Assembly: GCF_051650885.1 (NCBI RefSeq)
Contig: NZ_JBOFRG010000313.1
Span: forward strand, 17,354 to 49,353
Source of the DNA: Clostridium sp.
GTDB lineage: Bacteria; Bacillota; Clostridia; Clostridiales; Clostridiaceae
Length of the DNA: 32,000 nt
Direction: 5' to 3'
Shown here piece by piece: positions 22,817 through 32,000 of the stretch; position 1 is the stretch's first letter, and each line of letters starts with the position of its first letter. Made by a program: the position numbers and the translations under genes. The notes under the pieces were generated by a model, which was given only the letters and a program-made list of their open reading frames with translations, was not told the DNA's origin and searched no databases.

Positions 22817-24643
22817 ATGTGCGGAATAGTAGGATATGTTGGAGATAAAAAAGCAACTAACTTTTTAGTAGAGGGATTATCAAAGCTGGAGTATAGAGGA
22901 TATGACTCAGCTGGTGTCGCAGTAAATGAAGGAGGAAACCTTGTAGTTAAAAAGAAAAAGGGTAGATTATCTAACCTTGAAGAAGAATTAACTACGAACC
23001 CTTTAAATGGATGTGTCGGGATTGGACATACTAGATGGGCAACACATGGAGCACCATCAGATAGAAATTCACACCCACACTTAAGCAATGATGGAAGTAT
23101 AGCTGTTGTACACAATGGTATAATAGAAAACTACATCGAACTTAGAAAATTTTTAGGAGAAGAAGGTTATACTTTCAAATCAGATACTGATACAGAGGTA
23201 ATACCAAACCTTGTACAATATTACTATAATGGCGACCTTTTTGAGGCGGTAGTTAAAGCTACTGAAAGATTAGAGGGAAGCTATGCAATTGGAGTAGTTT
23301 CACAAAATGATGAAAACACTTTAATTGGAGTAAGAAAGGATAGTCCATTAATTGTTGGACTTAATGATACTGAAAATTACATTGCTTCAGATATACCGGC
23401 AGTATTAAGTTATACAAGAAAAGTATACTTATTAGAGGATGATGAATTTGTTATCATGAACAAAGAGGGAGTAACTCTTGTAACTAGAGATGGCAAAGAA
23501 ATCGATAAAGAAATTTTTAACGTAACATGGGATGAAAGTGCAGCCGAAAAAGGTGGATTTGATTCATTTATGTTAAAAGAAATACATGAGCAACCAAAAG
23601 CGATTAGGGACACGATGACTTCTAGGATATCATTAGAACATGGTGTTTTTTTTGACGACTTTAACATCTCAAAAGAAGAACTAGATGCTATTGATAGAAT
23701 ATATATCGTTGCTTGTGGAACTGCATATCATGCAGGACTTATGGGTAAAGCATCTATTGAAAGATTGGCTAAGATACCAGTTGAGGTAGATATAGCATCT
23801 GAATTTAGATATAGAAATCCATTAGTTACAGACAAATCTTTAGTAATAATCCTTAGTCAATCAGGAGAAACAGCAGATACTTTAGCAGCACTTAGAGATT
23901 GTAAAAAAGCTGGTGCAAGAGTATTAGTTGTAACAAATGTTGTAGGAAGTACAATGTCAAGGGAAGCAAACCATGTTATATATACAATGGCAGGTCCTGA
24001 GATTTCTGTTGCTTCAACAAAAGCATACACTACACAAGTATTAGTTATGCATATGATAGCAATTTACTTTAGTGAATTAAGAGAGACAGTTACTAAAGAA
24101 AACTTAAATAAAATAAAAGAAGAGATGTTAATGCTTCCAGAAAAAATTGAGGAAGCTTTAAATATAAAAGAAGATATAGAAAAAGTGGCTAAAGAAGTTA
24201 AAGATGAAAAAGATCTTTATTTCTTAGGAAGAGGAATGGATTATTCATTAGCTCTTGAAGGGTCATTAAAACTTAAGGAGATTTCTTATATCCATTCAGA
24301 AGCATATGCTGGTGGAGAATTAAAGCATGGACCAATTGCTTTAATAGAAGAAGGAACTAAAGTTATATCAATATTAACTCAAAAGAACTTAATAGATAAA
24401 ATGATAAGTAACGTAGTAGAGATAAAATCTAGAGGGGCTATAAACTTTGGAATAACATTCAAAAGTGAAGAGAAAGCATGTCAGGTATTAGATAATATAT
24501 TATTTATACCAGAAACACATGAAATTTTAGCACCAATAGTTTGCGCAGTAGCACTTCAGTTATTAGCATATTATGTGGCAAGCTTAAAAGGTTTTGATAT
24601 AGATAAACCAAGAAACTTAGCTAAATCTGTAACTGTAGAGTAA
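22817..24643 (+). CDS. glmS: glutamine--fructose-6-phosphate aminotransferase (isomerizing)
   Basis: 608 aa. MCGIVGY Ntn-amidotransferase start, two SIS domains (SQSGETADT), and C-terminal ...PRNLAKSVTVE typical of GlmS. Confidence 0.97.
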   Translation: MCGIVGYVGDKKATNFLVEGLSKLEYRGYDSAGVAVNEGGNLVVKKKKGRLSNLEEELTTNPLNGCVGIGHTRWATHGAPSDRNSHPHLSNDGSIAVVHNGIIENYIELRKFLGEEGYTFKSDTDTEVIPNLVQYYYNGDLFEAVVKATERLEGSYAIGVVSQNDENTLIGVRKDSPLIVGLNDTENYIASDIPAVLSYTRKVYLLEDDEFVIMNKEGVTLVTRDGKEIDKEIFNVTWDESAAEKGGFDSFMLKEIHEQPKAIRDTMTSRISLEHGVFFDDFNISKEELDAIDRIYIVACGTAYHAGLMGKASIERLAKIPVEVDIASEFRYRNPLVTDKSLVIILSQSGETADTLAALRDCKKAGARVLVVTNVVGSTMSREANHVIYTMAGPEISVASTKAYTTQVLVMHMIAIYFSELRETVTKENLNKIKEEMLMLPEKIEEALNIKEDIEKVAKEVKDEKDLYFLGRGMDYSLALEGSLKLKEISYIHSEAYAGGELKHGPIALIEEGTKVISILTQKNLIDKMISNVVEIKSRGAINFGITFKSEEKACQVLDNILFIPETHEILAPIVCAVALQLLAYYVASLKGFDIDKPRNLAKSVTVE

Positions 24644-24680
24644 AAATTATTATTAAAATTAAGATTTATGTTGTTGTAAA

Positions 24681-24740
24681 AAAAAGTTTGCGTATATATA
24701 AAAAACTTTGCATATATATAAAAAACTTTGCCTAAAGTAA
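24681..24740 (+). repeat. three contiguous 20-bp direct repeats (putative TnsB-binding sites of the transposon end)
   Basis: AAAAAGTTTGCGTATATATA / AAAAACTTTGCATATATATA / AAAAACTTTGCCTAAAGTAA. Copies 1 vs 2 match 18/20 and copies 2 vs 3 match 15/20. They are preceded by TGTTGTTGTAAA (24669-24680). Confidence 0.6.
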
Positions 24741-24780
24741 AAGGTATTTTACAGAAAAGTAAAAGGAGAGGTTAATAGAT

Positions 24781-24936
24781 ATGAATGATAAATTAGAGTT
24801 ATTGTTAAATGAGTACAAAGAAACAGAAAAATGTTTGGTTATGGGATTAGAGTGGTTACCAAATAATGATTTTGCAAAAGCAAAATTGGATGTAGTAAAA
24901 ATGATAATAAAAGATTTAGAAACTTTAAAAATATAG
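24781..24936 (+). CDS. small hypothetical protein (51 aa) just inside the transposon end
   Basis: Not in the ORF track. ATG 24781 is preceded by an AAAAGGAGAGG RBS. Translation is MNDKLELLLNEYKETEKCLVMGLEWLPNNDFAKAKLDVVKMIIKDLETLKI. A weak hairpin at 24944-24978 follows. No recognisable family. Confidence 0.4.
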   Translation: MNDKLELLLNEYKETEKCLVMGLEWLPNNDFAKAKLDVVKMIIKDLETLKI

Positions 24937-25014
24937 AATAGATAAAGAGGTGTTGATTAAATTCGACATCTCTTTTTGATTTAGATACAATATATTTATT
25001 AAGGAGTGATGAGA

Positions 25015-26475
25015 ATGATTACATATTTTCCAAAAGTATATGATGATGAATTAATGTATAGCATTATAGGAAGATATCATAAATATAGCGGAAACAATAA
25101 AACTTCAGAAACAACAAAAGAATTATTTAATAAAAAAATTTGTGCATCTAAGGATGTACAAGGATATATGAGAGCATTCGCAAAAAATGTTGGGAATATT
25201 ATGAAGAAAAATGAAATGGAACTTATAAACAATCACACACTAATACCAGTGTATGGTTTTTTTTCTTCAAAAGAGAAAGCAAGAAAAATTTTAAGTGTGG
25301 TTTTACATAAGGCTTCGTTAGATGTTATTCGTGAATTGGGTGATAATGGGAGTAATATTACAAAAAAAATAAATATCTATTATTGTCCAATATGTTCAAA
25401 TGATGAGTTTGAAAGAAATGGAGAAGCTTATATTCATAGAACACACCAAGTAAGAGGAGTTGTAGTTTGCGAAAAGCACAAATGTAAATTATATGAGTAT
25501 TCTGAAGAGCTAAAGAAAAATACCTATATTATATTGAAAAGAGAAAACTTGGTGAAAAATGTAGAATATTATGAGAATGAAATATATTGGAATATAGCAA
25601 GAACAGTTCATCAAATTCTTAATTCGTGGCAGTACGGGCAGAAAGAAAAAATAATAAATGAATTTAAAGTGAAGTTAAAAGAGAGAAATTTAATTATGGA
25701 TGGACATAGTGAGAGATTAAGAACTAAAAAGTTAGTTGAAGAATTTGAGAAAAAATATAGTAATGAAATTTTAAAGGAATTGGGTTGTGAAGTAAAACAA
25801 GAATCAAATAGTTGGTTAAAAAGAATATTAGTTAAAAAGAGAAATCAACAATACCTAAGATATATATTAATTAGTGAGTTTTTAGGAGAGAGAGATAAGG
25901 TGTTAAATACAAAAAGAAAAGAAAGTTCGAATAAAAAAGGAATTTGTCAAAATCCTTTTTGCGAAAATTATAATAATATTAATTTAGAATATGAAAATAA
26001 GAGGAAAAATAAAAAAGGAGATAAGTATATAGTTACATATAAGTGCAACTGCGGATATGTATATACAAGATATTTAAAAGGAAATATAAAGAGTAGATTA
26101 AAAGTTATTAGCTATGGGGAAAAATGGGAAGATGAATGTTTGAAACTAATAAAAAGGAAAGAAAAGTTAGCAAATATATCTAAATTAATGGAGTGTGATG
26201 AACGAGCAATAATTAAGTTTGCGCAGATGAAAAATTGTATAGAATTAGTAAATACTGATAGGAGAATGGATTTAACAAAGAAACTTGGTAATAATGGAAT
26301 TTGCAGTGAGGAGATAAAAATGAAACATATAGAAGTAATTGAAGATTATATAAAAAATACTCCAAATTGCACACAAAAAAAAATAAGAAAAATATATTCA
26401 AAAGAATATTATTATTTATATAAAAAGTTCAAAGAAGATTTAGATGATATGATAGTAAGATATAATCTGGAATAA
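25015..26475 (+). CDS. tnsD: TnsD/TniQ-family Tn7-like target-site selection protein
   Basis: N-terminus ITYFPKVYDDELMYSIIGRYHKYSG, then HTLIPVYGFF and the zinc motif YYCPICSNDEF..NGEAYIHRTHQVRGVVVCEKH. These parallel Tn7 TnsD (FPVPYSNELIYSTIAR..., HTLFPLYAPF, YCPDCV..YGEAFW.R.W....CPKH). A second Cys cluster CQNPFCEN...YKCNCGYVY is present. AAGGAG RBS sits 8 nt before ATG 25015. Confidence 0.85.
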   Translation: MITYFPKVYDDELMYSIIGRYHKYSGNNKTSETTKELFNKKICASKDVQGYMRAFAKNVGNIMKKNEMELINNHTLIPVYGFFSSKEKARKILSVVLHKASLDVIRELGDNGSNITKKINIYYCPICSNDEFERNGEAYIHRTHQVRGVVVCEKHKCKLYEYSEELKKNTYIILKRENLVKNVEYYENEIYWNIARTVHQILNSWQYGQKEKIINEFKVKLKERNLIMDGHSERLRTKKLVEEFEKKYSNEILKELGCEVKQESNSWLKRILVKKRNQQYLRYILISEFLGERDKVLNTKRKESSNKKGICQNPFCENYNNINLEYENKRKNKKGDKYIVTYKCNCGYVYTRYLKGNIKSRLKVISYGEKWEDECLKLIKRKEKLANISKLMECDERAIIKFAQMKNCIELVNTDRRMDLTKKLGNNGICSEEIKMKHIEVIEDYIKNTPNCTQKKIRKIYSKEYYYLYKKFKEDLDDMIVRYNLE

Positions 26476-26588: not shown

Positions 26589-26609
26589 TAAACTTGAGAG
26601 GTGAGGAAA

Positions 26610-27737
26610 ATGAAAAAGGTTGAAGTAACAAGTTTCCCAGCAAGCTATGGAGATTCATTTTTATTAGAAATAATTAATGATATGGAAACATATCGGATTT
26701 TGATTGACTGTGGATTTAAGAGAACATACTTAAATTGTTTAAAAGAGAAAGAATTAAAAAAATTGGATATGTTAATATTGACACATATTGATGAAGACCA
26801 TATTGGAGGAGCTTTAGAAATATTGAATCAGATACCGAAAATAGATATAAAAGAGATATGGTTTAATGATTTATATAAAATATATGAATATAAAAAAATA
26901 AAAACGACAATGGAGCATATTAGTGAAAACAAAGGGAAACAAGGAGAGGTAGGATATGCAAAAGCAAAAACAATTTCCAATTATTTGTATGAGAATTATT
27001 TAGAGGTATGGAATAAAAATCATACTCTAATTTGTTGTGATGCTAAAAAATATAAAGAAATAAAAATATTAAATGGTTTGGGAAAAATTATTTTATTATC
27101 ACCGAATATAGAGAGAGTAAATGAGTTGTTTTTGGCATGGATAGCACACATGAGAGACGTAAAGTTGAAATATGACACAAATGAAATCAATAGTTTTTAT
27201 AAATTTATTAAAAGTAATGATTATATTGCAACAAGAGTGCAGAATAATTGTGGGAATAATGGGCTAGATATAGAAAAGCTAGCAGATTATGATGGAAATA
27301 AAAATAGTGTTGTGAATAATTCATCAATTGCATTTTTGATAGAGATATTTGATAAAAAAATATTATTTTTAGGTGATGCTAACGGTAAGGATGTAGTGAA
27401 TGCATTGAAAGAATATATGAGTGATAAAAATATAGATAATTTAAAAGTAGATTTAGTTAAAGTGAGTCATCATGGTAGCAAAAATAATACAGACAAAGAG
27501 TTTTTTAGTATTTGCAAGTCAGATAAATATTTAATATCTACAAATGGGCACAGATTTAACCATCCAGATATGGAATGCTTAAGTAAAATAATTTATCATC
27601 AGAAAGAATATAAAACCATTATATTTAATTACTTAAGAGAAGATGTGAAAAGTAAATTGAATAAAAAAGAACTGAAACAGAGTTTAAATTATGAAATAGA
27701 AATGCCTGAACAAGAAGGGATACTTATAGAGGTGTAA
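26610..27737 (+). CDS. stand-alone ComEC/Rec2-type metallo-beta-lactamase-fold hydrolase (putative nuclease)
   Basis: LILTHIDEDHIGGA (nt 26781-26801 encode THIDEDH) and VKVSHHGSKNN (SHHGS at 27465-27479) match the xTHxDxDHxGG and HHGS blocks of ComEC-like MBL domains. No TM segments. GAGGTGAGG RBS before ATG 26610. Confidence 0.7.
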   Translation: MKKVEVTSFPASYGDSFLLEIINDMETYRILIDCGFKRTYLNCLKEKELKKLDMLILTHIDEDHIGGALEILNQIPKIDIKEIWFNDLYKIYEYKKIKTTMEHISENKGKQGEVGYAKAKTISNYLYENYLEVWNKNHTLICCDAKKYKEIKILNGLGKIILLSPNIERVNELFLAWIAHMRDVKLKYDTNEINSFYKFIKSNDYIATRVQNNCGNNGLDIEKLADYDGNKNSVVNNSSIAFLIEIFDKKILFLGDANGKDVVNALKEYMSDKNIDNLKVDLVKVSHHGSKNNTDKEFFSICKSDKYLISTNGHRFNHPDMECLSKIIYHQKEYKTIIFNYLREDVKSKLNKKELKQSLNYEIEMPEQEGILIEV

Positions 27738-27740
27738 AAT

Positions 27741-29183
27741 ATGGAAATGAATAAAAATTATATATGTAAAATATATAGTAATAACAAAGAATTTTTAGGA
27801 ACAGGATTTTTTATAAATGATAAACAAATGTGTACAGCTGGACATTGTGTTAAAGATATTGAGAAGGGTTATGTAGAGTTGATAAAAAAGAAATATTGCT
27901 TCACAAATGTGAAGAAAATTGAAGAGTTGGACTTTGCAATTGTTATATTTGATGAAGAGGTTTTTGATAGGAGGAGTATAGAATTTAATATAGATTTAGG
28001 GAGGACTAAGAAGGAAAGTTATACATATGGTTATACAAATCTATATAGCGAGGAATCGGAGGGGATGAAATTAAAGCTAGAAGAGTATCCGACAGAATAT
28101 GGAGATAAAATAATTGATGAAACACTTATGATTAGAGGCTGCAATGATGATAGAAGTTGGAAGGGAATATCAGGAGCTCCTGTTTGGAGTAGTGATGGCA
28201 TTAGGGGAATTGTTTTAAAAGAAATTTATGGTGATGGAATTCAAACAAGATTAGAAGCTATTTCATTTGATAAAATAATAAATTATTTAATAGAAAAAAA
28301 AGAAGAGGAATTATTAACGGGCTTTCCAAGGGCGACGATAGGAAAAAGGTTAAATGAGAGAGTTAGAGAAAATAAAAATAGATGTCAAGAGTTATATAGA
28401 GATATCGAACATAGAGAAGCAATAGAAAAAATAGAACCAAACTGTTTTAATTTTGAAAATAATATCAATGAAAAGCATATCTTAAATGAAATAACTGAAG
28501 TACTAGAAAAATATGCATTATTATTAGATGATGAAAGTGTAGAAAGGACAGGTAGATATTTTAGAGATATTAATGAAAAAATAGCAATAGTAGAGGAATA
28601 TATAGGTAAAGATTTTAATAGTATGTATATAGTGCTATGGATGTTAGCAGAAGGAAAAAAGTTTGCACCTAAAATAGGAAAAATATTGTGTGAGAGAAAT
28701 GGAGAGTTTTATGAAAGAGATATATTCATAAGTAGACATAATGGCGAAGGGAAAATAAAATTTTTGATTCCGTTCATCAGTTATAGTGAAAATTTGAAAG
28801 AAGGGATTGAAAATTTAATTACAAGTATGAGTAGAGAAGATAGTACTTTGATAAATTTAAATGACATACAACTTGATGGTGAGGCAGTAGCTTGTCTAGG
28901 ATATATAGAGCAATATGAATTAAGAAAAGCGGTAGAAAAAAGATATTCTGGGGTAGAGATAGAAATTATTGCATTAATAATGTATAACAGTAAAATGTAC
29001 AAGAAGGCAAAAAACATAACAAATAAAAAAGGAGTTATACAACGACAATATATGGACGACATTCAAAATGAAAGTTATAAGTATATGGTATCGACAATTA
29101 GTGAAAAAAAATTGAATTTATTTATATTACCAGTAAATGAATTTAATAAATTTGGACTGGAGAGAGATAATGTTAAAAGATGA
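27741..29183 (+). CDS. fusion protein: N-terminal trypsin-like serine protease plus a C-terminal ~285-aa domain with a PD-(D/E)xK-like motif
   Basis: Catalytic triad context CTAGHCV (His35, nt 27843-27845), LDFAIVIF (Asp64) and GISGAPVW (Ser144, nt 28170-28172). The C-terminal region carries MLAEGKKFAPKIGK and D327-x8-E336-G-K338 (nt 28719-28754). Start is 3 nt after the MBL stop, with an AGAGGTG RBS. Confidence 0.7.
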   Translation: MEMNKNYICKIYSNNKEFLGTGFFINDKQMCTAGHCVKDIEKGYVELIKKKYCFTNVKKIEELDFAIVIFDEEVFDRRSIEFNIDLGRTKKESYTYGYTNLYSEESEGMKLKLEEYPTEYGDKIIDETLMIRGCNDDRSWKGISGAPVWSSDGIRGIVLKEIYGDGIQTRLEAISFDKIINYLIEKKEEELLTGFPRATIGKRLNERVRENKNRCQELYRDIEHREAIEKIEPNCFNFENNINEKHILNEITEVLEKYALLLDDESVERTGRYFRDINEKIAIVEEYIGKDFNSMYIVLWMLAEGKKFAPKIGKILCERNGEFYERDIFISRHNGEGKIKFLIPFISYSENLKEGIENLITSMSREDSTLINLNDIQLDGEAVACLGYIEQYELRKAVEKRYSGVEIEIIALIMYNSKMYKKAKNITNKKGVIQRQYMDDIQNESYKYMVSTISEKKLNLFILPVNEFNKFGLERDNVKR

Positions 29184-31635
29184 GTATAAATATTTAAAAG
29201 AAATCAATAAAAAATATACGATACTTTATATAAAAAAAGAATTTTTGGAGAATGAAGTAATTGAAAAAATTAATTTAGAAGAAATAAAGTATGGACTTGC
29301 TCTTAGCGAGCTATTAATAGGATATAAAAATAATGATTATGTGGAGTTAGCATTAGAATATGCAACAATAATAACAACTGTAGTTAAAGATAAAAAAATA
29401 ATAAAGCGATGTAGTGATATATTAAATAGATTAACAATTTTTACATTTGAAGATGTTCTTAGAAGAAAAGAGAAAGACAAAGTAGAATTGAGTGGAAGTG
29501 GTTTTTCAGGAATGGAAGAACTTGGACACAGAAGAAAATATTTACGAAATCTTGGAAATGAAAAAGTTTTATTAAATAAGTTTCAAGCAGAGTTAAATGA
29601 TGCGATTAACAATTATAAAAATGTAAGTATTTCAGCTTCAACATCTGCAGGAAAATCATATCTAATGCAGAAAAATATTATTGATATGATATCCAAAGAA
29701 AAGGTAATGAAAATTATTTATGTAGTACCGACGAGAGCTTTAATAAGTCAAGTAATGACAGATTTTCAAAGAGAATTGAAAAATATAGGATTAAGTAAAG
29801 AGACAACACTAAGTTGTACGTCACATATTGAAGAAGGAGATTTAAAAGATAGATGCATATTGGTGCTTACACAAGAACGACTAAATCAAATTTTTTTTGA
29901 AGAAGGAATAAATTTAGATATAAATGTTATAGTGGTGGATGAAGCACAGGAAATAGGCGGTGGTGCGAGAGGTGTATTACTTGAGTATGTTATTAATAAT
30001 GCGAAACGAAGATGGGAGAAATGCAATATTATATTCTTAGCACCATTAATTGGTAATCCTGAAACATTTATAGAAAAGTTTAACTTGGAAAAAAGTTATA
30101 GTAAAAAAGAGGAGTTTAGAACTGTTAATCAAAATTTAATATCTTTAGAAAGAATTAGAGGAAAATCAAAAATGGAAATAAGATATGAAAATAGTCATAT
30201 TGGGGAGTTTCCGTATAGAGAAGAAGATTTAAGTAGGAAAGAGAAAAAGATTGCCTATATTTTTAGAAATTTTAATAATAATGAAAATTCCATTATTTAT
30301 TCTAAAATACCGAGTGAAGCTAGAAAGATAGCTATAGAGATAGCTAAGGAGATGGAGGAAGTAATAGATAGTGAAATTGAAATATTTGTAGAATTTTTAA
30401 AAAGTTATATATGTGAACAATATGAATTGGTTGATTTAATAAAAAGAGGTGTAGCATACCATTTTAGTGGAATACCAAGTATTATCAAAAATGGCATTGA
30501 GGAATTAGCAACAAAAGGAAAGTTAAAAGTAATAGCATGTACGACAACTTTGCTAGCAGGCGTTAATGTTCAAGCAAATAATATATATGTATATGAGACC
30601 AAAAAGAAAAATGATGAATTAACAAATTTAGAATTTTGGAATTTAATTGGAAGAGCAGGGCGGATGAAGTATGATGTATGTGGAAATATTATATTAATAA
30701 ATCTTAAGTTAACAGAAGAATTTCCTGAATATAGAAGGGCAGATATTGGGGGAGTGGTTTTTGCAAAGGAAGAAATAATTAATAATGAAAAAAAACAATT
30801 AGAAAATTATATAGAAAAAGCAGATAATGAGTTTTTAGATAAAAATAAGAAGAAAATTTATGAAAATATAGAAAGTACATTAGTTATTGAAGGTTTCTTA
30901 AAAAAAGAAGACGAAAAAATTGAAAAAATAGATAAATTGATAGAAATAAAAATTAAGGAAAATAAAGTGCCAGAAAAAATAGTAAGAAAACTTATAGGAA
31001 TAGATTTAAAAAAATTAAATTTATTATGGGAGAAAATGAATGATTGTGAAAATATTGAGGAATGTATATTAGTAAATCCATTTGCAAAGAATGCAAACAA
31101 GAAATTGATGGAAGTGTTGGGAATTATAAGTGAAATATTTTTAGAGAATAAATATAAAAGCGTAGCGTATAGAGGATATATTGTTAGCAAAGCATTAAAA
31201 TGGATAAGAGAAAATAGTTTTAGACAAATTCTTTTTGAAAATAAAAATATTGCTTTAATGGACAATGAAAAAATAAATAATGAAATAAGTACGGCATTGA
31301 AGGTGATTAATACAGATATACGTTATGAAATGAGTAAATATATTTATGCATACCAAGAAATTTTGAAAGAAATTTTGAAATTACAAAATAAAGAAGTATT
31401 AATAGCTAAAATGCCTAATTATCCATTATATTTGGAGTTTGGAGCAGCAAGAAAAAAAACTTTGGATTTAATGTGTATGGGGTTTATGAGAGAAACAGCT
31501 ATTTTGTTGGAGAGATATGTAAAAAGTGAGGAATTACTTGATATTAAGAAGGAAATAAAAAGTATTAATATTGAGGAAATAACTTGTAGTAATTATATAA
31601 AACAAAGGTTGAAGGAGCAAATAAACATATTGTAA
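29170..31635 (+). CDS. Ski2/Hel308-like superfamily-2 helicase with long N- and C-terminal extensions
   Basis: Motif I SASTSAGKS (GKS at 29650-29658), motif II VVDEAQE (DEAQ at 29938-29949), motif V-like ACTTTLLAGVNVQA, and motif VI NLIGRAGR (30649-30663). ATG 29170 follows GGAGAGAG and overlaps the protease stop by 14 nt. The ORF-track ATG at 29137 has no RBS. Confidence 0.8.
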   Translation: MLKDEYKYLKEINKKYTILYIKKEFLENEVIEKINLEEIKYGLALSELLIGYKNNDYVELALEYATIITTVVKDKKIIKRCSDILNRLTIFTFEDVLRRKEKDKVELSGSGFSGMEELGHRRKYLRNLGNEKVLLNKFQAELNDAINNYKNVSISASTSAGKSYLMQKNIIDMISKEKVMKIIYVVPTRALISQVMTDFQRELKNIGLSKETTLSCTSHIEEGDLKDRCILVLTQERLNQIFFEEGINLDINVIVVDEAQEIGGGARGVLLEYVINNAKRRWEKCNIIFLAPLIGNPETFIEKFNLEKSYSKKEEFRTVNQNLISLERIRGKSKMEIRYENSHIGEFPYREEDLSRKEKKIAYIFRNFNNNENSIIYSKIPSEARKIAIEIAKEMEEVIDSEIEIFVEFLKSYICEQYELVDLIKRGVAYHFSGIPSIIKNGIEELATKGKLKVIACTTTLLAGVNVQANNIYVYETKKKNDELTNLEFWNLIGRAGRMKYDVCGNIILINLKLTEEFPEYRRADIGGVVFAKEEIINNEKKQLENYIEKADNEFLDKNKKKIYENIESTLVIEGFLKKEDEKIEKIDKLIEIKIKENKVPEKIVRKLIGIDLKKLNLLWEKMNDCENIEECILVNPFAKNANKKLMEVLGIISEIFLENKYKSVAYRGYIVSKALKWIRENSFRQILFENKNIALMDNEKINNEISTALKVINTDIRYEMSKYIYAYQEILKEILKLQNKEVLIAKMPNYPLYLEFGAARKKTLDLMCMGFMRETAILLERYVKSEELLDIKKEIKSINIEEITCSNYIKQRLKEQINIL

Positions 31636-31878: not shown

Positions 31879-32000
31879 ATGAGAAGAAAAACAGATAAAG
31901 CAAAACGAAAAGAAAAAAGAGGAACTGGATATTTCGAAGAATACTCTCCATGGATACAGGTTCATGAATTTGGGTCAAAAGGAAGGACTCATAGAATTTT
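31879..32000 (+). CDS. tnsA: Tn7-like transposase endonuclease subunit TnsA, N-terminal 40 aa (3' end outside window)
   Basis: Not in the ORF track. AGGGAG RBS sits 7 nt before the ATG. Translation is MRRKTDKAKRKEKRGTGYFEEYSPWIQVHEFGSKGRTHRI. It parallels Tn7 TnsA RRIKEGRGQGHGKDYIPWLTVQEVPSSGRSHRI (shared pattern RG.G....Y.PW..V.E..S.GR.HRI). Confidence 0.75.
   Translation, partial: MRRKTDKAKRKEKRGTGYFEEYSPWIQVHEFGSKGRTHRI

Follow-up and report, generated by a model that had tools for sequence, protein, structure and literature searches.

What does a protein do that joins a serine protease to a putative nuclease domain and is encoded directly upstream of a helicase? The question is raised by a 32,000-nucleotide stretch of DNA from Clostridium sp. 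(assembly GCF_051650885.1, contig NZ_JBOFRG010000313.1, positions 17,354 to 49,353 of the forward strand), the whole of which was analysed and is called the window here; coordinates are positions within it. At 27741-29183 on the + strand, the window carries an open reading frame (ORF) of 480 aa which an original prediction, made from the sequence alone, took to be a protease fused to a HamA/DUF1837-like PD-(D/E)xK nuclease. We conclude that it is very probably the middle gene, encoding a protease-HamA fusion, of a HamM-HamA-HamB operon of the kind described as HamMAB or Hachiman-trypsin-MBL, MBL standing for metallo-β-lactamase.

HamMAB, a nuclease-protease form of Hachiman, was described by Tuck et al. 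in Pseudomonas fluorescens. Protease-HamA fusions occur in ~5 % of Hachiman systems, and the nuclease motif D-GEXK is absent from virtually all of them; the Pseudomonas protease cuts HamM after each of two Ile residues that lie within inserted loops, producing a DNase, and defence needs the nuclease, protease and helicase active sites alike (10.1101/2025.07.28.667249). In the Hachiman-MBL system of Klebsiella pneumoniae, studied by Huang et al., the MBL is cleaved at two KSS motifs, ATP inhibits the protease, and DNA with a 3' overhang leads to ATP hydrolysis and release of the trypsin domain; the DUF1837 domain lacks catalytic residues and binds the N-terminal helices of HamB (10.1101/2025.09.03.673762). 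A peer-reviewed classification also includes peptidase-fused HamA types whose DUF1837 domain is inactive, the PD-(D/E)xK sites being missing (PMC11914072). The window operon has the features of HamMAB (an MBL gene upstream, an N-terminal protease with its triad, and a HamA domain that has lost its nuclease residues) and those of Hachiman at large (a DUF1837 domain in HamA and a Ski2-like HamB directly downstream).

A protease joined to a divergent HamA domain

The ORF, from an ATG at 27741 to a stop codon ending at 29183, was judged to be real, and NCBI has deposited the identical protein as a 'hypothetical protein' from a Clostridium sp. metagenome-assembled genome (MAG), GCA_051651085.1. Its N-terminal domain (aa 1-189; 27741-28307, + strand) is a trypsin-fold serine protease with an intact H35/D64/S144 triad, as motifs, profile matches and structural comparison all indicate. 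The chymotrypsin-fold signature named in the original prediction lies exactly where it was placed: TAGHC at aa 32-36 with H35 (codon 27843-27845), DFAIV from aa 64 with D64 (27930-27932), and GISGAPV at aa 142-148 with S144 (28170-28172), all on the + strand. Across 29 aligned sequences of relatives, D64, G142, S144 and G145 do not vary; H35 is conserved at 90 % or above, and the one sequence that departs from it is truncated at the N-terminus. Pfam matches to Trypsin (6.2e-4) and Trypsin_2 (3.7e-3) fall just under the gathering cut-offs, and PADLOC returns the protease parts of RT-Protease_XI (1.3e-8) and of the Avs1b N-terminus (2.6e-7). In a full-length AlphaFold2 (AF2) model the predicted local distance difference test (pLDDT), averaged over 10-residue blocks, is ~60-87 across most of the domain. 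Foldseek, which the original prediction had proposed to run on each domain separately, gave 976 trypsin-like matches in the PDB at E<=1e-3 for this one, the best 50 of the 976 being trypsin, HtrA and kallikrein-type proteases. No hydrophobic signal-like stretch was found at the N-terminus on reading the sequence, which supports the earlier suggestion of a cytoplasmic protease.

A domain break near residue 190, also anticipated by the original prediction, was confirmed. What follows (aa 190-480 and the stop codon; 28308-29183, + strand) comprises a ~100-residue helical linker (aa ~190-290), modelled by AF2 at low confidence, which separates the protease from a C-terminal domain. Homology, profile-profile comparison and structural modelling identify residues ~190-480 as a very divergent HamA/DUF1837 domain of the PD-(D/E)xK fold. 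An exhaustive phmmer search with residues 190-480 against 1.84e9 representatives found only 8 related proteins; five besides the protein itself are 487-496 aa long and share its two-domain layout, making six full-length members. Word-indexed homologue searches, whether started from the protein or from the family alignment, recovered nothing beyond the protein itself and one relative (P0008); they were unproductive with this AT-rich, low-complexity-like sequence.

We assign the domain to HamA/DUF1837 because four lines of evidence agree. First, P0008, the most distant of the five full-length relatives, matches the Pfam HamA model PF08878 at 6.8e-9, above the gathering cut-off and over the whole model. 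Second, the window protein aligns end to end by BLASTP (4e-20, 25 % identity) with the Bacillus cereus protease-HamA WP_273634966.1 (515 aa, plasmid NZ_CP117423), itself matched by Pfam HamA at 6.6e-24 and also by Trypsin. Third, a profile of 22 protease-HamA C-terminal domains, window sequence first, was compared by hhalign with one built from seven canonical DUF1837 HamAs, whose genes lie upstream of plasmid-borne HamB genes, and scored 98.7 % (E 1.9e-16, 264 columns); the six-member family with one fragment alone still scored 76 % (E 2.3e-5). Fourth, Foldseek placed three HamA chains on top for the modelled C-terminal domain: 8zue_A (E 2.6e-5, probability 1.00), then 8vxy_A and 8vx9_A (probability 0.91-0.95), with all subsequent matches at <=0.15. 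The model used came from a second AF2 run on the C-terminal domain alone with 22 sequences; a first, full-length run with 6 sequences left most of the C-terminal half at pLDDT <50 and was unusable. The helix WMLAEGKKFAP is real: W300, E304 and G305 are invariant in the 29-sequence alignment, and both hhalign and the merged alignment pair it with the canonical HamA helix LLFLLAERFLKMP.

The degenerate nuclease site

Is the HamA domain a nuclease? The original prediction held that it is, reading D327, E336 and K338 as a D...ExK signature and proposing, as one option, a dual effector that degrades both protein and DNA through an active PD-(D/E)xK site. The string D327...G-E336-G-K338 does resemble D-GExK, D327 is invariant in the six-member family, and an identical GEGK stands at the true catalytic position in some fusions of the Bacillus clade. 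In seven canonical HamAs the site consists of an invariant helix Glu (GEGGE), an Asp (GADG) and G-E-x-K. D327 (codon 28719-28721, + strand) is probably the retained canonical Asp to within one residue: it falls within one column of the metal-binding D148 by both hhalign and MAFFT, and its 17-residue spacing to P344 equals the canonical spacing from D148 to G165. The other two residues fared differently. E336-G337-K338 (28746-28754, + strand) aligns, in hhalign and in a merged L-INS-i alignment, with DGK in the non-catalytic β2-β3 hairpin turn of canonical HamA. The nearest relatives carry EGK, EKG, EEK, DGD or SNK there; thus, of the three residues on whose conservation the original prediction had staked its reading, D327 is kept throughout the family while E336 and K338 vary. 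The AF2 model places 333-338 (HNGEGK) in a non-strand turn linking strands 322-332 and 339-349, with pLDDT of 82, 77 and 86 in the blocks spanning the hairpin (domain positions 131-160).

The position of the canonical G-E-x-K is instead occupied by P344-F345-I346-S347 (28770-28781, + strand), as both hhalign and the merged L-INS-i alignment indicate. All seven canonical HamAs carry G-E-x-K at this position, whereas the window family reads PFIS, PIIA, PLIS, PFVS, PVIE and GYGQ. The canonical helix Glu aligns with Y295, so that both G-E-x-K and the helix Glu are lost and only the Asp is kept. Since the ExK position reads P-F-I-S, the HamA domain is predicted to be nuclease-dead, its fold being kept, and this predicted loss argues against a dual protein and DNA effector. 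Two further points tell against that option: the Klebsiella trypsin-HamAB has no detectable nuclease activity (10.1101/2025.09.03.673762), and a D-x(5-20)-(D/E)-x-K pattern is to be expected from chance alone, appearing in 91 % of shuffles of this Glu/Lys-rich C-terminal domain. A D...ExK string in a Lys- and Glu-rich protein is thus no evidence of a nuclease site, and we regard the dual effector as highly improbable.

Equating the window GEGK with the catalytic GEGK of the Bacillus clade was considered and rejected. Such a pairing can be had only with indels of 8-9 residues that compensate each other on either side; it also disrupts the match of the next helix and disagrees both with the variability seen within the family and with the secondary structure of the AF2 model. 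The Bacillota clade itself (L004:2052-3599 and P0009-P0032) has an acidic residue one position past the canonical Asp and has lost the helix Glu. Unlike the window family, it has G-(D/E)-x-K at the catalytic position in 12 of its 16 sequences, LYLGEGKL being one example. Published accounts of fused HamAs as lacking the motif do not fit this finding, and Bacillota protease-HamA domains might retain nuclease activity.

The operon, its likely effector and the proposed mechanism

If the HamA domain is no longer a nuclease, the likely effector lies upstream. The gene hamM (26601-27737, + strand) encodes an MBL-fold, ComEC-like protein, a predicted pronuclease, as Pfam, PADLOC and NCBIfam matches and metal motifs indicate. 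The ORF begins with GTG at 26601, while NCBI starts it at an ATG at 26610 (375 aa), and its stop codon is 3 nt from the protease-HamA start. The protein matches Pfam Lactamase_B (2.3e-11), PADLOC models for the LmuA-type MBL (3.5e-77) and Avs1a (2.1e-49), and, under the cut-off, NCBIfam Avs1a (7.9e-67). Its THIDEDH, GD, SHHGSK and NHP motifs are invariant across the four syntenic homologues. By analogy with the characterised systems, the hamM product is likely the true DNase effector and the protease substrate.

Downstream, hamB (29137-31635, + strand) encodes a superfamily 2 (SF2), Ski2-like DEAD/DEAH helicase, the presumptive sensor. The protein matches PADLOC HamB1 at 2.6e-159 over residues 20-830 of 832 and Pfam DEAD (4.6e-19) and Helicase_C, and carries a Walker A SAGKS and a DEAQ motif; the HamA-like domain upstream of a helicase, as originally proposed, is thereby borne out. 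The longest ORF starts at an ATG at 29137 and the NCBI gene at 29170 (821 aa); both overlap the 3' end of hamA, which suggests translational coupling. The order MBL, protease-HamA, HamB recurs in three other loci, namely a second Clostridium MAG (L002), a Logan contig (L003) and the B. cereus plasmid NZ_CP117423 (L004). That plasmid holds the closest plasmid relative of HamB, preceded by an MBL-fold gene and the 515-aa protein, which the NCBI pipeline PGAP names 'Hachiman antiphage defense system protein HamA'. A locus search with a 5-sequence family alignment recovered a single Clostridium MAG locus.

The mechanism that we propose is taken from the characterised Pseudomonas and Klebsiella systems; the protease triad and the MBL metal motifs on which it would depend are intact here. 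The dead HamA domain would act as a scaffold through which the protease docks on HamB, at the helical domain of the HamB N-terminus, and in the resting, ATP-bound state the protease would be sequestered. During infection HamB would meet free 3' DNA ends and hydrolyse ATP, and the protease domain would be released. The released protease would then cut the inhibitory insertion loops of the MBL pronuclease, and the cut MBL would turn into a non-specific DNase and destroy the DNA of phage and host alike in abortive infection.

The other option of the original prediction, proteolytic activation or release of an effector, thus survives in part. Proteolytic activation is the published mechanism of this type of system, but its substrate is the upstream MBL, which the original prediction had ignored, and not HamA. 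A narrower version, in which the protease cuts its own linker and frees the HamA domain or itself as an effector independently of the MBL, could draw on the long, low-confidence helical linker between the domains. It could also draw on trypsin-domain release in the Klebsiella model, although that release is conformational, not proteolytic (10.1101/2025.09.03.673762). In both characterised systems, however, the protease acts with high specificity on the upstream MBL, and defence is lost when the MBL active site is mutated (10.1101/2025.07.28.667249; 10.1101/2025.09.03.673762). The MBL gene is also strictly syntenic in all four loci examined, and the HamA domain lacks the catalytic residues that release would unleash. 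Self-processing therefore seems to us very unlikely.

Several observations weigh against placing the operon in HamMAB with cleavage of the published kind. No HamA/DUF1837 model in Pfam, PADLOC (E<=0.1) or NCBIfam matches the protein, and phmmer and hmmsearch searches of PDB sequences returned marginal trypsin matches or noise and no HamA; the assignment is based on profile-profile, transitive and structural evidence. The AF2 model of the C-terminal domain is of moderate confidence (mean pLDDT 66, core ~80, predicted template modelling score 0.67), and its TM-scores to the HamA chains are 0.40-0.49. In the MBL, the translation holds no KSS cleavage motif and a conserved IS(G)N cleavage motif could not be placed, the one ISN (KTISNY) not being conserved in the syntenic homologues. 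The MBL carries variable insertions, and its loop 1 is ~17 aa shorter than in the Logan and B. cereus loci. The invariant D327 may, for its part, have a residual metal- or DNA-binding role. Because KSS and a conserved IS(G)N are absent and loop 1 is shorter, cleavage of this MBL is only inferred, and the sites at which the protease cuts may match neither of the published types. A deeper departure from the published systems is possible, if unlikely: the Clostridial family, with 6 full-length members among 1.84 billion representatives, would be a separate, deeply diverged HamMAB lineage whose protease has a third cleavage specificity, one not described before, and in which D327 could mark a residual metal- or DNA-binding role and the HamA domain would not be a pure scaffold.

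Comparison with described systems nevertheless favours HamMAB. The Clostridium operon shares with Pseudomonas HamMAB the gene order MBL, trypsin-protease-HamA, HamB, the intact triad, the loss of the HamA D-GEXK, and an MBL akin to the Lamassu LmuA-H and Avs1a MBLs. It differs in that its HamA is missed by hidden Markov models (HMMs) and in that its MBL shows no recognisable IS(G)N, the conserved Ile cleavage motif, at a conserved position. With Klebsiella Hachiman-MBL it shares the architecture, the predicted nuclease-dead DUF1837 scaffold and the protease His/Ser active site, whereas the Klebsiella MBL is cut at two KSS motifs and the window MBL has none. The Bacillota clade resembles it in end-to-end homology (B. 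cereus WP_273634966.1) and in its flanking MBL and HamB genes, but the Bacillus members are found by the Pfam and PADLOC HamA models that miss the window protein.

Other defence systems match in part. Type I-B Cap4-HamA/HamB (8ZUE; PMC11914072) also fuses an N-terminal effector to a catalytically inactive DUF1837 scaffold, but its effector is the Cap4 nuclease and it has no MBL partner gene, whereas the window system pairs a protease with an MBL. Canonical type I-A HamAB of Escherichia coli ECOR31 (8VX9; PMC12278908) shares the DUF1837 fold, the HamA-HamB pair and a DNA-end-sensing helicase. Canonical HamAs, however, are ~260-330 aa long, have no protease, and act as DNase effectors through an active D-GExK, mutated in the ECOR31 protein as E138A/K140A (PMC12278908), where the window protein reads PFIS. 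AVAST type 1 (Avs1a MBL and Avs1b protease-STAND) likewise has a mobile MBL and trypsin-protease effector module, with a STAND NTPase as the sensor in place of HamA/HamB. NCBIfam Avs1a and Avs1b scores are far under their cut-offs: only residues 6-185 of the 480-aa window protein match, at 24 bits against a cut-off of 1500, the N-terminus of the ~1900-aa Avs1b, and the window protein has no NTPase domain. As for Lamassu, no SMC-like LmuB gene is adjacent to the MBL, which matches the LmuA model and neighbours protease-HamA and HamB.

Setting in a Tn7-like element and reach of the system

The operon belongs to a Tn7-like element whose insertion site lies just past the 3' end of glmS (22817-24643). 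The transposon end beside glmS (24678-26475, + strand), recognised by Pfam matches and by repeats visible in the sequence, comprises end repeats, a 51-aa ORF and tnsD/tniQ. Three tandem ~20-bp repeats (24678-24739; AAAAAA[G/C]TTTGC[G/A/C]TA...) begin ~35 bp past the glmS stop, with TGTTGTTGT before them. A search with one repeat unit recovered the first two copies at <=3 mismatches and one unrelated site, and 0 of 200 shuffles gave 3 repeat matches. The repeats are probably terminal binding sites of the transposase TnsB at an end of the element at attTn7. The intact tnsD/tniQ (25006-26475) matches Pfam TnsD (1.1e-26) and TniQ (3.3e-13), and beyond hamB the source contig continues with tnsA (from 31879, cut by the window end), tnsB and tnsC. 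Judged by this gene context, the Tn7-like element at glmS carries the defence operon as cargo.

The 51-aa ORF (24782-24937; MNDKLELLLNEYKETEKCLV...) lies between the end repeats and tnsD; NCBI calls it as a gene, and no Pfam match was recorded. A second tnsD after tnsC is broken, split into ORFs of 370 aa and 184 aa, and the two tnsD copies share 73 % identity over the first 84 nt. The gene order, read from 25006-26475 and 31879-32000 of the window and from L001 7379-13535, is unusual: glmS, element end, 51-aa ORF, tnsD/tniQ, hamM-hamA-hamB, tnsA-tnsB-tnsC, second tnsD. Such an arrangement points to elements that are tandem or rearranged, and it sets the defence operon between transposition genes.

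That the cassette is a decaying remnant hitch-hiking in a rearranged Tn7-like element could be argued from the broken second tnsD, from a HamA domain too divergent for HMMs and from a family of 8 representatives in 1.84e9, but it is scarcely credible given three full-length ORFs with tight or overlapping junctions, intact catalytic motifs in protease, MBL and helicase, and relatives at only 27-36 % identity that keep length, architecture and synteny, which implies purifying selection.

The window protein is thus a very divergent addition to the described HamMAB system, set apart by the divergence of its HamA domain, the sparsity of its family, and the differing loop and sites of its MBL. It brings no new mechanism, as both architecture and logic were already published in 2025. 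The operon is one more case of defence genes travelling as Tn7-like cargo at attTn7. Hachiman-MBL (HamMAB) extends into Clostridia in a form that the current Pfam and PADLOC HamA HMMs miss. HMM-based defence annotation may therefore undercount such systems, the HamA component here being missed although HamB scores 2.6e-159, and a better HamA model could be seeded with the six sequences of the family.

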